A DNA stretch of 33,234 bases, from contig CAZFYJ010000002.1 of assembly GCA_964523215.1 (NCBI GenBank), positions 1 through 33,234 of the forward strand, given 5' to 3'. Positions within the stretch are counted from its first letter, which is position 1, and the number at the start of each line of letters is the position of its first letter. The DNA comes from an uncultured Sphingomonadaceae bacterium (GTDB taxonomy: Bacteria; Pseudomonadota; Alphaproteobacteria; Sphingomonadales; Sphingomonadaceae). A program made the translations under genes and the position numbers. The notes beneath the pieces were generated by a model. That model did not search any database, was not told where the DNA came from, and worked only from the letters and a program-made list of their open reading frames with translations. Shown here one piece after another: positions 22,893 to 33,142 of the stretch.

Positions 22893-23942
22893 GTGCCACA
22901 ATTTTGCGAAACCCGTGCCGCCACAGCGCATGCCGATCCTGCGAGCGAGGCGATGCAGCGCCGGCCGATCGGGATGTGCGCCGCTGCACCCGGGGCCCGT
23001 GAGATTGTTGCAATCGCGCATGACGCGCCCGATTTCGGCTGGATTGGCAACAGCGTTGCAGCCCAGCGCGTGCGTGCAATGGTGCGGCGGGTTGCGCCGG
23101 CGGCGTGCACCGTGCTGATCGAGGGGAAAACCGGCACAGGCAAGGACGTGGTTGCCATGGCGCTCCACCGCCAGGGACTGCGTGCGCGGCGCCCGCTGGT
23201 CACAATCAACTGCGCCGCCATCCCCGAAACCCTGATCGAGGGAGAATTGTTCGGCTATCGCAAGGGCGCGTTCACGGGCGCGCACTGCGGCTATGCGGGC
23301 AAGATTGCGCTTGCCGATCGCGGCACGCTGTTTCTCGACGAAGTGGGCGAGCTCAGCCTTGCTGCGCAGGCCAAATTGCTGCGGGTTCTGGAAAATCGGG
23401 AGGTTGTTCCCCTGGGCGGGGCAGAGCGGCGCATTGTTGATGTGCGCATCATTGCGGCAACCAATCAGCATCTCGAGGCTGCTGTTGCGGCGGGGCGCTT
23501 CCGCGCGGATCTGTTTTACCGGCTGGCGGTGGTGCGCCTGTCGCTGCCCGCGCTTGCCTCTCACCGGGAGGATATTGCGCCGATCGCGCAGCATCTGGTG
23601 GCGCGCATGGCAGCCGACATGCAGCTGGCCGAGGTCCACATTGCCGCCGATTGCCTGGCCGCATTGAAGCAGCATGACTGGCCGGGCAATGTGCGCGAGC
23701 TGCGCAACGCGCTCGAACATGCGCTGGTGATCGCGCCCGATCCCACACGGTTGACGGCGGATGATCTGCCCGATTCAGTGCGCTTTGTGCCTGTGCCCCC
23801 GGCCGGGCGCGATGCTGCCGACGATCGCCAGCTGCTGGTCGACGCGCTGGCGGCGTGCGCCGGGAAAAAGGCCGATGCGGCCCGCATGCTCAAATGCTCG
23901 CGCATGACACTCTATCGCCGCATGGAGCGTGCCGGCCTGTAA
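22893..23942 (+). CDS. Sigma-54-dependent transcriptional activator (bEBP) lacking an N-terminal sensory/receiver domain
   Basis: AAA+ core with Walker A (LIEGKTGTGKD), ELFGYRKGAFTGA (the GAFTGA sigma-54 contact loop) and Walker B (GTLFLDEVGEL). It has a C-terminal Fis-type HTH (KKADAARMLKCSRMTLYRRMERAGL). Only about 45-65 residues precede the AAA+ domain. The start is ambiguous: GTG 22893 or ATG 22953. Confidence 0.9.
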   Translation: MPQFCETRAATAHADPASEAMQRRPIGMCAAAPGAREIVAIAHDAPDFGWIGNSVAAQRVRAMVRRVAPAACTVLIEGKTGTGKDVVAMALHRQGLRARRPLVTINCAAIPETLIEGELFGYRKGAFTGAHCGYAGKIALADRGTLFLDEVGELSLAAQAKLLRVLENREVVPLGGAERRIVDVRIIAATNQHLEAAVAAGRFRADLFYRLAVVRLSLPALASHREDIAPIAQHLVARMAADMQLAEVHIAADCLAALKQHDWPGNVRELRNALEHALVIAPDPTRLTADDLPDSVRFVPVPPAGRDAADDRQLLVDALAACAGKKADAARMLKCSRMTLYRRMERAGL

Positions 23943-23946
23943 CAGC

Positions 23947-23989
23947 TGTCACAGCCGGCGTGACGGAAACTGTCACAGCACATGTGACA
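23947..23989. promoter_or_regulatory. Two tandem palindromes TGTCAC-N7-GTGAC(G/A): candidate enhancer (UAS) sites for the adjacent bEBP
   Basis: Site 1 is 23947-23965 (tgtcacagccggcgtgacg) and site 2 is 23971-23989 (tgtcacagcacatgtgaca). The centres are 24 bp apart and lie about 85 and 61 bp upstream of the -24 GG. An A6 tract (24008-24013) lies between the sites and the promoter. Confidence 0.6.
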
Positions 23990-24039
23990 CATCATGGCCT
24001 TGCGCACAAAAAACGCTTTCGGATCAATGCTTACGCAAC

Positions 24040-24055
24040 TGGCATGCTGCTTGCT
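24040..24055 (+). promoter_or_regulatory. Sigma-54 (-24/-12) promoter
   Basis: TGGCATgctgcTTGCT matches TGGCAC-N5-TTGCW at all but one position, with exact GG-to-GC spacing. It lies directly downstream of a bEBP gene and the palindromic sites, and directly upstream of the CIS operon. Confidence 0.7.
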
Positions 24056-24066
24056 GATGAAAGGGC

Positions 24067-24420
24067 ATGACGGATGCAGACCGGCACGCCCAGCAGGATC
24101 AGCACAGCGCGGAGGCAGCACAGCCGGCGCGCCACTATGTCAATCACATTGCCTTGAGCGTCAGCCTGTCTGAAGTGCGGATCGATCTGGGGCAGGATTT
24201 TCCGGATGAACATTCGCCGCGGCCGCAGTGCCGCCTCGTCACCAGCCCGGTCCATCTCCAGCGGATCGAACACAGTATCGCGGCTGCCCTCTCCCTCTAT
24301 CGCAGCCGTTTCGGGCTGATAGGCGAGCCCGGTGGCTGGAGCCGCGCCGACGGATCGCCCGCGGCAGATGCACCTGCAGACACCTCACCCGATCTGCCGG
24401 GGCCGGAGGGGCGGCACTGA
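24067..24420 (+). CDS. DUF3467-like small protein, first gene of the CIS operon
   Basis: 117 aa. HYVNHIALSVSLSEVRIDLGQDFP...CRLVTSPVHLQRIEHSIAAALSLYRSRFG fits my memory of the DUF3467 pattern (YSN....HS..EF..DF........K.R....P.HAKRL...L...I..YE...G). The C-terminal tail is disordered and Pro/Asp-rich. Confidence 0.55.
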   Translation: MTDADRHAQQDQHSAEAAQPARHYVNHIALSVSLSEVRIDLGQDFPDEHSPRPQCRLVTSPVHLQRIEHSIAAALSLYRSRFGLIGEPGGWSRADGSPAADAPADTSPDLPGPEGRH

Positions 24421-25031
24421 TGGCGGGGCTTGATGCGATCCATGCTGTGGGGGATAGTCTCGCGCTCTTGCTGCAGCGCAGGCGTGGCCTGCTGGCGGCC
24501 GAGGGGCGGCTCGCCCCGGTGCCGGAAAGCGATACCATCCAGCAGCTCACCGTGCCGGCGCTGATTGCTGCGCCGCCTGCGGCCGGGCTTTCGATCAGCT
24601 GCTATCATCTCGATTATTCCGAAGCCGTGCCAGGCCGACGCGCGACCAGCGATCCGGCGGCCGCGCACGGCATTTCGCTGGAGCTGAACTATCTGATCGC
24701 CAGCTGGAGCAACACGCCCGCCGCCGATATGGCGCAGCTGAGCTGGGCCATGCTGGAGCTGGGCCGGTTTCCGACGATCGATCGGGCGCTGATGGCCAAT
24801 CCGGCGGGCTGGGGGCGCGATGAGAGCCTGCAGATCGTGCCGCAGCAGGCGCAGCCGGAGCAGATCTTCCGAATCTGGGAAGCGCTCAAGATGAAGCATC
24901 GGCTCGCCGCCTTGTTCAAGGTGCGCGTGGTGCGCATTGGCTATGGTCCGGTTGCAGATGCGGCACCGGTGGTCGCATCCCGCTTCAGCTTTGCGCATGG
25001 GGATGTCAGCGAAGAGGCGGCCATCGCATGA
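24420..25031 (+). CDS. DUF4255 (Pvc16/Afp16 N-terminal domain) protein, CIS tail terminator/cap
   Basis: The start is the ATG at 24420, inside track ORF 24228..25031 (TGATG overlap with the previous stop). The features AVGDSLALLL, LSISCYHLDYSE, LELNYLIASWS...M..L and LFKVRVVRIG are typical of DUF4255. Confidence 0.7.
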   Translation: MAGLDAIHAVGDSLALLLQRRRGLLAAEGRLAPVPESDTIQQLTVPALIAAPPAAGLSISCYHLDYSEAVPGRRATSDPAAAHGISLELNYLIASWSNTPAADMAQLSWAMLELGRFPTIDRALMANPAGWGRDESLQIVPQQAQPEQIFRIWEALKMKHRLAALFKVRVVRIGYGPVADAAPVVASRFSFAHGDVSEEAAIA

Positions 25032-25834
25032 TGACGATGCTGCGCCCCGATCTGCTCGACCGGCGGGCGCTGGCGCTGGTCCAGCTGCTTGATGCGCTTG
25101 GCCGTCCGCTGGCCGCGACGGCACGGATGACAGCCCCGGCGCTGCGCCTCTATGCCAAGGGCAGCGGGCGCTATGCGGTGCTCGGGGCGGCGGGGCTTGA
25201 GGATTATGCCGCCAGCTTTGCAACGCCCGCGGCCCCCGCCTTGCGCAGCGTCAGCCTGCCAGTGGATATTGTGCCCGGCGATGGCGCACATCTGCCCCGC
25301 CGCTTTACCCTGGCGTTGCCCCGCGATCCCGATCCGGCACAGCGCGGCACTGCTGCGAGCCTGTTCGATGCGATTCCGGTCGCGCTGCTGCCAAGCCCCG
25401 CAGCGGGCATTCCGGCGACAGCGGCGGCGGTGCGCGTCACCGTGCGCAAGCGCAATGACGGGCGGCGTGTCGCGGGGGCGCTGGTCCGCGTGGCAAGCGA
25501 CAATGGCCGCTTCACGGCCACCGGCATGACCGACGCGACGGGCGAGGCGCTGGTGCTGATCCCTGCATTTCCGGGCGCATTTCCCGGCCCCGGGGCCAAG
25601 CTGCAGGATTTTCTGCCGGGGAAGGTGACGGCCGTTGCCGATCCTGCCCGCGCCGTGCTGGTTGCCGAGGATGGCCTGCTGGCCGCCCAGGCAGAGGCGG
25701 CCCGGCAGGTCGCCGGATTTGCTGATCCCGATGCACTGGCAGCAGCCTTTCCTGCGCCCAGTGCCGGCGCCGTTGCCATCCGGCTCTCCACCCGTCGCCC
25801 GGCCATCGCCCAGGCGGAATGGAGGGCGCCATGA
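25028..25834 (+). CDS. Hypothetical CIS-associated protein with a carboxypeptidase-regulatory-like beta-sandwich segment
   Basis: 268 aa, starting in an ATGA overlap with the cap gene. The segment VRVTVRKRNDGRRVAGALVRVASDNGRFTATGMTDATGEALVLIP resembles CarboxypepD_reg/Big-like folds. Nothing else was recognised. Confidence 0.5.
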   Translation: MMTMLRPDLLDRRALALVQLLDALGRPLAATARMTAPALRLYAKGSGRYAVLGAAGLEDYAASFATPAAPALRSVSLPVDIVPGDGAHLPRRFTLALPRDPDPAQRGTAASLFDAIPVALLPSPAAGIPATAAAVRVTVRKRNDGRRVAGALVRVASDNGRFTATGMTDATGEALVLIPAFPGAFPGPGAKLQDFLPGKVTAVADPARAVLVAEDGLLAAQAEAARQVAGFADPDALAAAFPAPSAGAVAIRLSTRRPAIAQAEWRAP

Positions 25835-29882: not shown

Positions 29883-30463
29883 TGGTCTTCGCCCCGCCCC
29901 GTGGCCAGGATGCCCGCACGCCTTATGGCAATTTCGGCTTTCACGTCTCTTTTGTGGGGCCCGATCTGCAAGCGCTGTTCGGCGGGTTGCACAGCACATC
30001 GACCTCGCTGCTCGGCGGCTTTTCCGAAGTCTCCGGGCTTGAGGCATCGATGGAGCACAAGATGATCAAGGAAGGCGGGCGCAATTATGGCGTGGTGATG
30101 CGCGCGGGCCCGACCGGATTTGGCACGGTCGTGCTGAAGCGCGGCATCGTCAGCTCGCGCCATTTGTGGCGCTGGTGGTCCCGTTTCGCCGGGGCGGATG
30201 GCGCCAATGATGCATTGCCCAACAGCGCGCATCGCTGCGATGTGCTGATTGGCCTTATCCAGCCGGTGGCGTCGCTCGGCCTGCAAAAGCTGGCAGAGCG
30301 CGATCGCGCAGAAACGGCGCATGTGGCCCGGGTTGCCTGGAAATTGCGCAATGCCATGCCAGTCCGGTTCAAGATCGGCGATCTCAACGCAAAGGGAAGC
30401 GATGTGGCCATGGAAGAGCTGCATCTGGTGCACGAAGGCCTCGATCTGGAGCCGGTCGCATGA
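29882..30463 (+). CDS. Second tail tube paralogue (gp19 family)
   Basis: The start is the ATG at 29882 inside track ORF 29393..30463 (TGATG overlap). YGNFGFHVSF...LLGGFSEVSGLEASMEHKMIKEGG...GTVVLKRGIVSSRHLWRWW...MEELHLVHEGLDLE parallels the first tube protein. Confidence 0.85.
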   Translation: MVFAPPRGQDARTPYGNFGFHVSFVGPDLQALFGGLHSTSTSLLGGFSEVSGLEASMEHKMIKEGGRNYGVVMRAGPTGFGTVVLKRGIVSSRHLWRWWSRFAGADGANDALPNSAHRCDVLIGLIQPVASLGLQKLAERDRAETAHVARVAWKLRNAMPVRFKIGDLNAKGSDVAMEELHLVHEGLDLEPVA

Positions 30464-31836
30464 CCCGCGTCGCACCCGGCACGCTCACACGCGCGATGCT
30501 GCGCCCCAAGGCCAGCGAGAGCGAGACGACGCGCCGCAGCGACAGCGACAATCTGCTCGTCCAGTTCAATCCGTCGACCTTGCGCGTGTCCTTCACCAAC
30601 CAGTTCGGCGAGGGCAAGCCGTTCGAACATGCCAATGAAACCACTGCCAAGCTCGATGTCGAGCTGATCTTCGATACGACGGACAGCGGCGACAGCGTCT
30701 ATCTTTATCTCAACAAGCTGATCGCGATGACGCGCGCCAATGTGCCGGCGTCCACAGGCAGCGGCAATCAGGCCAATCAGCCCGCGGGCTCGGTGCCGAT
30801 CATCGAGTTTCACTGGCGCACCAAATTGTTCGAAGGGGTGGTCGAATCGCTCACCCAGACGATCGAATATTGGTCGCATGATGGCGTGCCGCTGCGCGCG
30901 ACGGTGCAGCTGTCGCTCAAGGAAACCCGCAAAGTGGACGTGCGCGACAGCTATCGTGCGCGTCGCACAGCCGCCGACATCGCCATCAACGACCGGGCAG
31001 ATGCGCCGGTCGCGGTGCCGCCCCCCATTGGGGCCAAAGGCGCGACCGAAACGGCGACGAAAGGCGGCAACAGCCGCGCCGGACGCAGCATCGCCGCGCT
31101 GAACGGGATGGAGAGCATGCGCAGCGCCGTCGCTGGCGCCAGTGCCAGTGCTGGCGCCGGGGCAGGCGCATTTGCCGGGGCAGGCGCATTTGCCGGGGCG
31201 AGCGCCAGTGCCAGTGCCAGCGCCAGTGCCAGTGCTGGTGCGGCCATTGCGGTCAGCGCCGGGGTCAAGCTGGAGGCTGCCGCAGGATTTGCTGCATCGG
31301 GTGGCGTCAGTGCCAAGGCAGGCGCGGGCGCTTCGCTGGGCTTCGGGGTCGGCGCGGCGGCTGGTGCCAGCGCAGGTGCAGGGCTGGGTGCCAGTGTCGG
31401 CATTGGCATGGCGGCAGGCGCAGGTGGCGGGGCGGGCATCGGGGCAGGCATCGGAGCAGGTGCGGGCATCAGCGCTGGCGCCGGTTTCTCCGCGGGTGCG
31501 TCGGCGGGTGTCGGGATTTCCGCATCAGCGGGTGCGTCTGCGGGCGTCACTGCCGGTGCATCGGCAGGCGCGAAGGCGAGTGCCTCGGCCAGTGCAGGCG
31601 TTTCCGCCTCGGCCGGTGCCTTTGCCGGTATCGGCCCATCGAAGGCGATGGCAGGCGTCACCGGGGTCAACCCGGCAGCGTTGCTGCCGCCCCCGATGCC
31701 GATGCCGATCGGGGCCGGCGCACGTTTTGATGAATCCGGTCGCCTGACAGGCAGCAGCGGCGTGATGGTTGCCGAAAGCTACAGCATCGACAGTGCCGGC
31801 AACGAAAAGCGCAGCTCGCGCGTGGAGATTTTCTGA
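30460..31836 (+). CDS. CIS tube-domain (Afp7/Pvc7 tube-initiator-like) protein with a long Ala/Gly/Ser low-complexity C-terminal region
   Basis: 458 aa. The N-terminal 170 aa or so (LLVQFNPSTLRVSFTNQF...KLDVELIFDTT...PIIEFHWRTKLFEGVVESLTQTIEYWSHDGVPLRATVQLSLKE) fit the CIS_tube pattern that, as I recall, is normally fused to LysM. Residues about 224-394 are (A/G/S)n. A non-repetitive tail of about 60 aa follows. Confidence 0.75.
   Translation: MTRVAPGTLTRAMLRPKASESETTRRSDSDNLLVQFNPSTLRVSFTNQFGEGKPFEHANETTAKLDVELIFDTTDSGDSVYLYLNKLIAMTRANVPASTGSGNQANQPAGSVPIIEFHWRTKLFEGVVESLTQTIEYWSHDGVPLRATVQLSLKETRKVDVRDSYRARRTAADIAINDRADAPVAVPPPIGAKGATETATKGGNSRAGRSIAALNGMESMRSAVAGASASAGAGAGAFAGAGAFAGASASASASASASAGAAIAVSAGVKLEAAAGFAASGGVSAKAGAGASLGFGVGAAAGASAGAGLGASVGIGMAAGAGGGAGIGAGIGAGAGISAGAGFSAGASAGVGISASAGASAGVTAGASAGAKASASASAGVSASAGAFAGIGPSKAMAGVTGVNPAALLPPPMPMPIGAGARFDESGRLTGSSGVMVAESYSIDSAGNEKRSSRVEIF
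31129..31640 (+). repeat. In-frame low-complexity/tandem-repeat DNA encoding the Ala/Gly/Ser tract
   Basis: An exact 18-bp unit gccggggcaggcgcattt occurs at 31156-31173 and 31174-31191, with a partial third copy. Hexamer repeats (AGY GCC) x6 occupy 31201-31236. Degenerate GCN/GGN/AGY codon runs continue to about 31640. The other two forward frames (for example 31142..31747) and the reverse strand (30951..31670) also read open across most of the tract. Confidence 0.85.
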
Positions 31837-31855
31837 TGCGAAAGGATGGCCCAGC

Positions 31856-32038
31856 ATGGCTGTGATCATTGATGAAATCATTGCGGAAGGCCCGCCGCCT
31901 TCGCCTGCCATGCCCGCCGCAGGTGCCGCGCAATCGCCCCCTGCCGATGCCCGCGCGGCAGGGCTCGCCGTGCAGCAGCGGATGATGGACGACATGCACC
32001 GCCTGGCACAGCGCCAGTCGCGCATCTGGGCCGATTGA
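31856..32038 (+). CDS. Small (60 aa) CIS-associated protein, possibly DUF5908-like
   Basis: The start is the ATG at 31856, inside track ORF 31769..32038. The N-terminus MAVIIDEIIAEG resembles the MPIEI+EL-type start of small eCIS ORFs as I recall them. It sits in the 217-nt gap between the tube-initiator-like and hub genes. Confidence 0.45.
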   Translation: MAVIIDEIIAEGPPPSPAMPAAGAAQSPPADARAAGLAVQQRMMDDMHRLAQRQSRIWAD

Positions 32039-32053
32039 GCGACGAGGCAGGAC

Positions 32054-33142
32054 ATGGCGCTGGACGATCCCGTTGCGGTCTATTCCACCCGGCCCACGAT
32101 CGAAGTGGGCGGCATGGATTATCCTGCGCTCAACAGCAACATCGCGGCCATTCGCGTCAGCGAAGCCCTGGGCGGTCTGACGACGGCAGAGCTGAGCGTG
32201 GTCGATTGGGTGGCGCGGGCGGATGGATCGAGCAGCTTTGGCGCAGACAGCGGATCGCCGCTCGTGCTGGGTGCGTCCTTGCGCGTCTTTCTTGGCCCGG
32301 CAGAGGTGCTTGCGTCCGAGGTCTTCGATGGGCAGATCGTGGCCATCGAGGCTGAAATGCGCCGCGATAGCCCGCCCGCTTTCACGGTGATTGCCGAAGA
32401 TCGCCTGTTTGCCGCCCGCCGCATCCGCAAAAGCCGCACCTTTGAAGCGGCGAGCCTTGCCGATCTGGTCAGCGCCATCGCCGCAGACCATGGCCTGACC
32501 CCCGAAGTGCGCGACGGGCTGGATACGCCTTTCAGCGATTGGGCGCAGCAGGATGAGAGCGATCTGGCCTTTCTGCGCCGGGTTCTGGCCCGGTTCGATG
32601 CCGATGCCCAGGTGGTCGGCAATCGCCTGCAGGCCGGACGGATTGGCGTCGATCGGCGCAGCGCGATCACGCTGGCGGCAGGCACCACGCTCGAATCCGT
32701 GCGGATCACGGCGGATATGGCGCACCAGATCAGCAGCACGCGGCTGGACAGTTTTGATCCCATCAGCGGCGATCCAGTGACCGGCGAGGCCGAAGCAACG
32801 GGCAGCGGGCCGGGCCGCGGGCGCAGCGGCAAGGATGTGCTGGCCGCCGATTTTCAGGCGATTGCGCTGCCGCTTGGCCATCATGGGCCGATGACGGCAG
32901 AGGAGGCAACGGCAATGGCCCAGGCCGAGGCGGACCGCCGGGCGCGCAGCTTTGTGACGGCCCGGGGCACCGCGATCGGCAATGCCCAGCTGCGGGTTGG
33001 CAGCTGGATCACGCTGGCGGGCGTCAATCCCGCCTTTGCCAATGATTATGCAGTGAAGCAGGCCGTGCATCGCTATGAGCCGGTGGAGGGCTATCGCACC
33101 GATTTTGTCGCGGAATGTGCCTATCTGGGAGCCGCGGCATGA
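32054..33142 (+). CDS. Phage late control gene D (gpD/gp27-like) baseplate hub protein
   Basis: 362 aa. It contains FDGQIVAIEAEMRRDSPPAFTVIAEDRLF...RKSRTFEAASLADLVSAIAADHGL and QDESDLAFLRRVLARFDADAQVVGNRL, and the C-terminus GNAQLRVGSWITLAGV is typical of the gpD family. Confidence 0.8.
   Translation: MALDDPVAVYSTRPTIEVGGMDYPALNSNIAAIRVSEALGGLTTAELSVVDWVARADGSSSFGADSGSPLVLGASLRVFLGPAEVLASEVFDGQIVAIEAEMRRDSPPAFTVIAEDRLFAARRIRKSRTFEAASLADLVSAIAADHGLTPEVRDGLDTPFSDWAQQDESDLAFLRRVLARFDADAQVVGNRLQAGRIGVDRRSAITLAAGTTLESVRITADMAHQISSTRLDSFDPISGDPVTGEAEATGSGPGRGRSGKDVLAADFQAIALPLGHHGPMTAEEATAMAQAEADRRARSFVTARGTAIGNAQLRVGSWITLAGVNPAFANDYAVKQAVHRYEPVEGYRTDFVAECAYLGAAA

Follow-up and report, generated by a model that had tools for sequence, protein, structure and literature searches.

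The tube initiators of contractile injection systems (CIS) have served as phylogenetic markers and are treated as a uniform core part of about 225 amino acids (aa). In the thylakoid-anchored CIS (tCIS) of Anabaena, the LysM subdomain of the initiator ties the tube to Cis9 and Cis12, outside the tube channel, and in phage Mu the LysM-position subdomain occupies the space that separates hub from wedges, likewise outside the channel. LysM is listed by Geller et al. as a 'shell' domain of extracellular CIS (eCIS), not as a core or universal one. Here we analyse a gene at positions 30,460 to 31,836 of a 33,234-nucleotide stretch of DNA (the window) from an uncultured Sphingomonadaceae bacterium (contig CAZFYJ010000002.1), which encodes a protein of 458 aa. 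Judged from its sequence and predicted structure, this protein is an Afp7/Cis7-type tube initiator of a contractile injection system. A preliminary description, made from the letters of the window, had proposed that a long Ala/Gly/Ser tract stands where relatives carry LysM. We find that the protein appears to be a complete initiator with about 235 extra residues, and the tract is best described, on the basis of a family alignment, as a pair of enlarged loops or linkers set within a small, conserved module at the C-terminus. No description of an initiator with this extension, or of the lineage that carries it, was found in literature searches, in keeping with the earlier remark that no CIS component of this architecture was known.

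Tube-initiator fold and LysM position

The Pfam family CIS_tube (PF19266) matches aa 20-159 with E=1.3e-13 (51.4 bits against a cutoff of 27), within the N-terminal ~170 aa to which this domain had been assigned before, and it is the only Pfam family matched in the protein. When PDB sequences were searched with phmmer, Afp7 (6rao_G, E=3.5e-4) and Pvc7 were both matched. AlphaFold2 (AF2), run on a 108-sequence alignment, predicts a tube fold with a predicted local distance difference test score (pLDDT) of ~90. The best PDB matches of this model in Foldseek were all tube initiators (8kea_P, 7aeb_M, 9gtp_M, 6j0n_b and 6rao_G); the matches include cyanophage A-1(L), Alg7, Streptomyces Cis7, Pvc7, Afp7 and Anabaena Cis7, with E values of ~1e-9 to 2e-7 against 7aeb_M, 9gtp_M, 9qgl_7A, 6j0n_b, 6rao_G and 7b5h_AK. 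For Streptomyces Cis7 the alignment extends over 227 columns, compared with a chain of 225 residues, and the AF2 model of a 302-aa relative aligns over 217-234 columns with the 223-232-aa Cis7, Alg7, Afp7 and Pvc7. The closest named relative of the N-terminal part is from Altererythrobacter segetis (59%). The gene itself belongs to a sheath-tube-baseplate operon, where it has an Afp5-like second tube gene upstream and the hub gene downstream (Table 1). The Afp7/Pvc7-type identity proposed in the preliminary description is thus upheld by Pfam, phmmer and Foldseek alike.

We next consider the LysM position. At aa 184-221 the AF2 model shows a strand (185-186) and two helices (194-201 and 205-214) with pLDDT 83-87. 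The phmmer alignment with Pvc7 reaches query residue 227, which corresponds to chain residue 219 of 229, and we regard the C-terminal Pvc7 segment aligned in this way as the LysM part of that protein. The Foldseek alignments of the models take in Cis7, Alg7, Afp7 and Pvc7 from end to end, with a high root mean square deviation. When coevolution was analysed by the mean-field approach (307 sequences, effective number of 216), contacts emerged within the tube and LysM-position parts, and the top couplings of the whole protein fall within the helical hairpin (G208-M220, T196-G208 and A212-M220). No match to Pfam LysM (PF01476) turned up either in the query (E<=0.01) or, with a threshold as loose as E<=10, in 10 diverse relatives, and a profile of aa 160-232 found no LysM chain in the PDB. 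The earlier statement that the C-terminal region has no LysM-like sequence therefore holds at the level of Pfam and does not hold for the model, in which a strand and two helices occupy the LysM position. Our reading is that a subdomain is retained there, one that appears to have diverged beyond recognition by sequence. Because the strand and helices are kept at aa 184-221 and the models align over their full length with solved initiators, the tract would be an addition and not a replacement. The proposal that it takes the place of LysM is not borne out: a predicted helical hairpin is kept and the tract lies after and within it.

Anatomy of the C-terminal extension

The stretch in which Ala, Gly and Ser make up at least 80% of residues covers aa 218-396. 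Its 179 aa agree with the ~170 aa first noted, and the Pro/Met-rich segment (NPAALLPPPMPMP, aa 404-416) and the non-repetitive tail that had been said to follow it are also present. The tract is not, as had been thought, uninterrupted. Instead, the motif IAVSAGVKLEAAAGF (aa 263-277), which is conserved throughout the family, divides it. The family alignment of long and short members reveals a conserved framework, and on this basis the low-complexity sequence resolves into two expansions between motifs.

The first expansion (aa 222-262) has a column occupancy of ~0-0.1 and is present only in the closest relatives; it holds the 18-bp and 6-bp tandem repeats of the gene and is modelled with pLDDT <50. 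By contrast, the columns of IAVSAGVKLEAAAGF have an occupancy of ~0.9 across the family, including members nearly without low-complexity sequence. The family form of this motif, ..L.V.AGV.L..AAGF, is located after NG.E.MR, and in the AF2 model it is probably the second strand of the LysM-like unit. The motif SAGVSASAGAFAGIG, whose family form is SAGVSAS.GAFAGLG, begins the C-terminal module, and the corresponding positions 1-15 of the tail profile are matched in the family hits among the 148 cluster representatives described below. A 308-aa member (P0222) has almost no low-complexity sequence between the conserved motifs.

The tail is predicted with pLDDT 75-84 at aa 401-430 of the query and 73-81 in a short homologue (P0133), and values of 73-84 in two independent models would fit a defined local structure or docking. 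In PDB searches the tail profile gave only weak, repeated matches to the Big_2-like immunoglobulin (Ig) repeats of a teneurin-like protein, which at most hint at a structure made of strands. The middle of the profile (P..v.vG..aqFDvtGr...g.v) also matches tandem repeats in giant proteins of up to 5225 aa with as many as 18 repeats, P0123, P0131 and P0153 among them, and from these sequence matches the tail may amount to one half of a set of Ig-like strands. Compared with the remaining operon proteins, the tail profile showed neither similarity nor a complement.

Reading frame and assembly

The open reading frame (ORF) given in the preliminary description stands with its exact coordinates and frame. 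The ATG start codon and the TGA that ends the upstream tube gene overlap as ATGA, a GGAG precedes the start by 8 nt, and the two genes are probably translationally coupled. The last ~70 aa are kept in >100 homologues despite differing tract lengths, the tail profile matches 148 clusters, and the ratio of nonsynonymous to synonymous substitution rates (dN/dS) within the tract is low: among four Sphingomonas orthologues it is 0.09-0.22 at dS 0.46-0.81, similar to the flanking domains. On these grounds we conclude, from sequence conservation, that the gene is real and read in this frame, which is maintained throughout the tract. The tandem repeats in its DNA are all short (18 bp x2.4-4.2, 6 bp x5.3 and 12 bp x2.8) and codon choice inside the tract is varied, so that a large collapse of repeats, which had been raised as an alternative, is unlikely. 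In-frame conservation of the tail, purifying selection and the presence of only short repeats together lead us to reject a wrong frame or an assembly artefact. In the GC-rich window, other frames and the opposite strand also contain several long ORFs that overlap the tract (e.g. 30951..31670, minus strand); these are by-products of GC-rich low complexity.

In the complete genome of Sphingomonas sp. 7/4-4, the orthologue (locus L017, 2399-3785) carries a frameshift within the tract, and a number of further genes in the locus appear to be broken up, reflecting either an assembly error in homopolymer-rich, low-complexity DNA or a decaying locus.

Composition and evolution of the Ala/Gly/Ser tract

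Across 196 proteins of the family, the spacer that separates the LysM-position block from the tail module ranges from 35 to 259 aa (median 133). Its family-wide composition is 26% Ala, 26% Gly and 16% Ser (together ~68%), with ~20% Phe, Val, Leu, Ile and Met and only ~3.5% Lys, Arg, Asp and Glu. In the query, 23 of the 27 gaps between hydrophobic residues are even (binomial p=1.6e-4) and 21 successive large hydrophobic residues lie on one parity over residues 263-381 (118 aa); the mean even-gap fraction of the family is 0.77. The two-residue alternation with Gly, Ala and Ser that is typical of silk-like sequence is therefore present. GxG occurs 20 times versus 12.1 +/- 2.5 in shuffled sequences and GxxxG 24 times versus 11.9 +/- 2.5, which is 3-5 standard deviations (SD) above expectation. 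The 19-residue Kyte-Doolittle hydropathy reaches a maximum of 1.41, below the usual membrane-helix threshold of 1.6, and AF2 predicts the tract with pLDDT 30-45 and no helix of at least four residues between aa 215 and 404.

Sphingomonas species that are ~90% identical elsewhere differ in the tract by insertions and deletions (indels) of even numbers of residues, and their tracts include a differently composed Ser/Thr/Phe/Asp segment. As judged from the repeats, the expansions probably grew by slippage of 6-, 12- and 18-bp units, and the two-residue periodicity may be in part a by-product of slippage in multiples of 6 bp. On the other hand, the composition and sequence of the tract still matter, as indicated by the purifying selection acting on it (dN/dS 0.09-0.22). 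Conserved sub-motifs are found inside the tract among the closest 108 relatives, and in a divergent pair the tract is 81% identical, compared with 63-65% for the flanking domains, a figure inflated by alignment bias in low-complexity sequence.

Possible roles of the extension

Starting from the identity, domain layout, reading frame, conservation, variability and selection established above, we infer the location, docking and role of the extension as follows. A hexameric ring of initiators on the hub would seed the inner tube, and the second subdomain would tie the tube to the wedges of the baseplate. To this arrangement a C-terminal module specific to the lineage (IAVSAGV.L..AAGF, SAGVSAS.GAFAGLG, DP.RLLPPP, FD.TGR... 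and a hydrophobic end) would have been added. Outside the tube, the extension would occupy the hub-wedge/spike region of the baseplate or project from it, and could serve there, as a structural adaptor or filler, at the interface by which the baseplate retains the spike-tube complex; the conserved tail might fold back to bind the initiator body or dock on a baseplate neighbour. We tentatively favour this reading of an Afp7/Cis7-type hub adaptor whose lineage-specific C-terminal module bears silk-like loops and is not a length ruler, and put its chances at a little below even. Several points weigh against it. The LysM assignment finds its support in the predicted fold only; the placement of the extension in the baseplate is deduced, while AF2 gives the tract low confidence (pLDDT 30-45) and no secondary structure; the coevolving pairs between tail and body (G202-L408 and F45-P410) score no better than spurious pairs from low-complexity sequence; and the conservation of the tract (81% versus 63-65%) is a poor match to a mere filler or linker and may point to a specific structure.

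The lead idea of the preliminary description was that the initiator has, in the form of the extension, a tape-measure or lumen-filling element fused to it. On this view, six extended chains in or along the tube would set tail length and the tail would dock at the far end. Consistent with this idea, no recognisable tape-measure gene lies within 19 kb downstream in 17 Sphingomonadales loci, Chen et al. report that lineage II systems as a rule lack afp14 homologues, the tiny uncharged residues could easily be threaded through a narrow space, and ~235 aa would by our own estimate span ~80 nm when fully extended, on the order of a CIS tail. However, the extension begins after the LysM-position subdomain, which by analogy with solved CIS and phage baseplates would be outside the tube, and the tract varies 7-fold in length (35-259 aa) among syntenic loci with similar tube proteins, with the shortest spanning ~12 nm. 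Moreover, AF2 predicts neither helices nor a coiled coil, no tape-measure match was obtained in Pfam, PHROGs or NCBIfam, and unannotated proteins of ~750 and ~1480 aa are conserved downstream, of which the latter, at 1471-1508 aa in all loci, could be the ruler. It is correct, as pointed out before, that no separate tape-measure gene stands between tube and hub, where the initiator gene and a 64-aa ORF are alone, but this says little because the tape-measure gene of the antifeeding prophage (AFP) is numbered afp14, after afp8-afp13 (Chen et al.). We therefore disfavour the lead idea and judge a fused tape measure very unlikely.

Two further options raised at the outset, a silk-like segment and a flexible tether, are kept as rivals to the hub adaptor. 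If the tracts of the six subunits formed an ordered beta-sheet, such as a collar or sleeve around hub or spike, this would account for the one-parity run of 21 hydrophobic residues over 118 aa (p=1.6e-4) and the family mean of 77% even gaps, for GxG and GxxxG frequencies 3-5 SD above shuffles, for dN/dS values of 0.09-0.22 and a tract more conserved than its flanks in the divergent pair, and for the sub-motifs kept among the closest 108 relatives. Parity would, however, be preserved automatically if indels come in multiples of 6 bp, some family members almost lack the tract, the Sphingomonas versions carry a Ser/Thr/Phe/Asp segment of other composition, and AF2 shows no strands (pLDDT 30-45) in the monomer, a kind of model that cannot reveal an intermolecular sheet. 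Such an assembly is in our view unlikely, yet it deserves to be taken seriously. Less probable still is a disordered linker that lets the tail bind a distant partner, be it the membrane-anchored protein of 510-555 aa that is specific to the lineage, the small Ig-like proteins or cargo. Low AF2 confidence and rapid turnover of indels in the tract would agree with a tether, as would the weak resemblance of the terminal module to half a Big_2 Ig repeat together with small Ig-like genes in the same operon. By contrast, the tail reaches pLDDT 73-84 in monomer predictions that contain no partner, neither similar nor complementary sequence was found for its profile among the other locus proteins, and purifying selection at the sequence level exceeds what a passive tether would need.

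Finally, the ring might travel with the spike at the tip of the tube after firing, so that its amphipathic loops, rich in glycine zippers, enter or disturb the target membrane. The uncharged alternation of hydrophobic and small residues, the enrichment of GxxxG, the presence of six copies close to the spike and the reported entry of the Mu tube initiator gp43 into the host with the DNA speak for this scenario. Against it stand the hydropathy maximum (1.41 over 19 residues, <1.6), the hub and spike between the ring and the target, the lack of homology to pore formers and the short-tract members that share the same synteny, and we regard it as the least probable of the roles considered here. We also think it quite improbable that the tract is a working element in its own right in which six uncharged chains, anchored on the initiator ring, form an ordered, extended beta structure that is either a non-helical determinant of length along the tube, in a lineage with no recognisable tape measure, or a membrane inserter borne on the spike.

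Genomic context and distribution

Within the window, genes for a sheath, a tube, a sheath-like protein, a second tube, the initiator, the 64-aa ORF and a gpD-type hub follow one another, and the window ends after the hub gene (Table 1). The same gene order was found in every related locus examined (L001-L003 and L021-L024). The operon opens upstream with a sigma-54 activator (22893-23942), a DUF3467 protein (24067-24420, E=7e-7), a Pvc16_N protein (~24408-25031) and a 268-aa protein, with housekeeping genes farther upstream.

Table 1. Features of the initiator gene and its neighbours in the window
Feature	Coordinates	Strand	Basis
Initiator gene (Afp7/Cis7-type tube initiator with C-terminal extension)	30460..31836	+	458-aa ORF; homologues of 283-532 aa share N-terminal domain and C-terminal tail
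Tube (CIS_tube) domain, aa 20-159	30517..30936	+	Pfam PF19266, AF2, Foldseek, phmmer
LysM-position subdomain, aa 184-221: short strand and two helices; motif G.T..A...GDP.AGR..AA.NG.E.MR	31009..31122	+	AF2, family motif conservation, coevolution
Ala/Gly/Ser expansion 1, aa 222-262, between second helix and next conserved motif	31123..31245	+	Family alignment
Conserved motif IAVSAGVKLEAAAGF, aa 263-277	31246..31290	+	Family alignment; AF2 strand at 263-264
Ala/Gly/Ser expansion 2, aa 278-377, nearly uncharged, two-residue periodicity	31291..31590	+	Composition, gap counts, family length variation
Conserved motif SAGVSASAGAFAGIG, aa 378-392, start of C-terminal module	31591..31635	+	G, A and F invariant in alignment A4
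Conserved C-terminal tail, aa 393-458: DP.RLLPPP turn, FD.TGR strand region, hydrophobic C-terminus	31636..31833	+	Conserved in all top homologues
Second tube gene, Afp5/Cis5-like	29897..30463	+	Pfam Phage_T4_gp19 E=5e-21; NCBIfam CIS5_fam partial match; ATGA overlap
Second 'sheath' gene, 571 aa	28167-29882	+	C-terminal sheath domain only, weak, E=3.5e-4, below Pfam cutoff
Small conserved ORF, 64 aa, directly downstream of initiator gene	31844..32038	+	Position held by 54-57-aa gene in every related locus, across phyla
Baseplate hub gene, gpD/VgrG-related	32054..33142	+	Pfam Phage_GPD E=6e-14; NCBIfam VgrG_rel E=7e-23

The opening genes span 22893-25834 of the window on the plus strand and were compared with those of L001, L003 and L023; the fourth is an unannotated protein of ~265 aa. 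GerE or BTAD regulators replace the sigma-54 activator in other branches. We found no publication that connects DUF3467 with contractile systems. A protein of 520-561 aa is encoded between the two tube genes in every related locus, and the second 'sheath' gene of the window is either a divergent sheath paralogue or a gene for a different protein. The 64-aa ORF, which had no informative Pfam or PDB match, could, judged by its size and neighbours, be a small Cis6/Afp6 'spike plug' with swapped gene order or else a partner of the extension.

Beyond the hub, the related loci continue with a gpV spike, a protein of 510-555 aa, gp25, baseplate J, a P2_I/CIS12-like protein and small Ig-like proteins. 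The 510-555-aa protein is encoded between spike and gp25, and its copy in L001 (13263-14924) has a strongly hydrophobic C-terminal end. Farther downstream, 17 Sphingomonadales genomes encode conserved proteins of ~290, 720-800, 1471-1508 and ~500 aa. The first three of these appear to share an N-terminal motif in locus L004. Pfam and PHROGs gave no informative match for the downstream proteins of ~290, 800, 1480 and 500 aa, nor did PHROGs for the 262/268-aa protein and the 553-aa membrane protein, nor PDB sequence searches with three of these locus proteins. No Afp15-type AAA+ ATPase was recognised within ~19 kb downstream of the initiator (L004-L019, positions ~12.7-22.6 kb in each).

Among 1.84 billion proteins, the tail profile matches 148 cluster representatives (50% identity). 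In family-type matches the tail lies at the C-terminal end of the protein, the exceptions being a few giant Ig-repeat proteins. The same synteny of 15-20 genes with an extended initiator occurs in Sphingomonadales, Leptolyngbya ohadii, a metagenome-assembled genome (MAG) of Anaerolineae and further metagenome contigs; Blastocatellia and Caldilineaceae are also among the named relatives, and the architecture is found in Sphingomonadales, Cyanobacteria, Chloroflexota and Acidobacteriota. Members with a short tract (327 and 357 aa) occupy the same type of locus as the 458-aa query. Judged by synteny and alignment, the extension is a hallmark of one distinct syntenic lineage, with the long Ala/Gly/Ser expansion seen in some of its branches. 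NCBI and UniRef label the Leptolyngbya ohadii relative only as 'CIS tube protein', and the JGI label on some relatives is 'Contractile injection system tube protein'.

Significance

A syntenic lineage that extends over at least four phyla thus carries an initiator nearly twice the usual size, with a conserved module and a tract that evolves fast and is nonetheless under selection. In the stretches examined, this lineage has no recognisable tape measure or Afp15-type ATPase, and for this reason surveys that require Cis14/Cis15 may miss it. Should the extension sit at the hub-wedge interface, it would touch the firing latch and be relevant to the engineering of particles. A ruler or a membrane-active element, if true, would be a new kind of CIS component and of much greater interest.

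Comparison with known systems

The fibroin of Bombyx consists of GAGAGS-type (Gly-X)n repeats. The tract resembles silk fibroin in that Gly, Ala and Ser alternate with larger residues, charge is lacking and the DNA repeats are based on hexanucleotides. It differs in being bacterial, part of a phage-tail-like machine and much shorter, and the AF2 monomer shows no beta-sheet. With the tape measures Afp14 and gp29 the sole likeness is the analogy drawn in the preliminary description, that of a long, compositionally simple polypeptide encoded near tube and hub genes. There is no homology to these proteins and no helix or coiled coil, the length varies 7-fold within one lineage and, by analogy with solved baseplates, the extension would be present in six copies anchored outside the tube, unlike Afp14 and gp29.

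The closest counterparts are Afp7, Pvc7, Cis7 and Alg7 (6rao, 6j0n, 9gtp, 7b5h and 7aeb), which have in common with the protein described here the CIS_tube domain, a fold that aligns over the full length and the place of the gene between an Afp5-like tube gene and the hub/spike gene; their small second subdomain probably has a counterpart here at the LysM position. These initiators measure 223-232 aa and end after the LysM domain, whereas ~235 further residues follow here, and the LysM-position part is not recognised by Pfam LysM. Larger initiators are known from phages: Mu gp43 (9ki1), those of Milano and 7-7-1 (8fqc and 9rku) and that of A-1(L) (8kea) likewise combine a tube-like domain with a larger C-terminal region, which lies between hub and wedges. 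Sequence similarity to them does not go beyond the tube domain, and their additional region is a folded, helix-rich domain that contains LysM, whereas the extension described here consists of short beta-type motifs and low-complexity loops. By analogy, these enlarged phage initiators indicate that extra functional mass outside the tube is possible.

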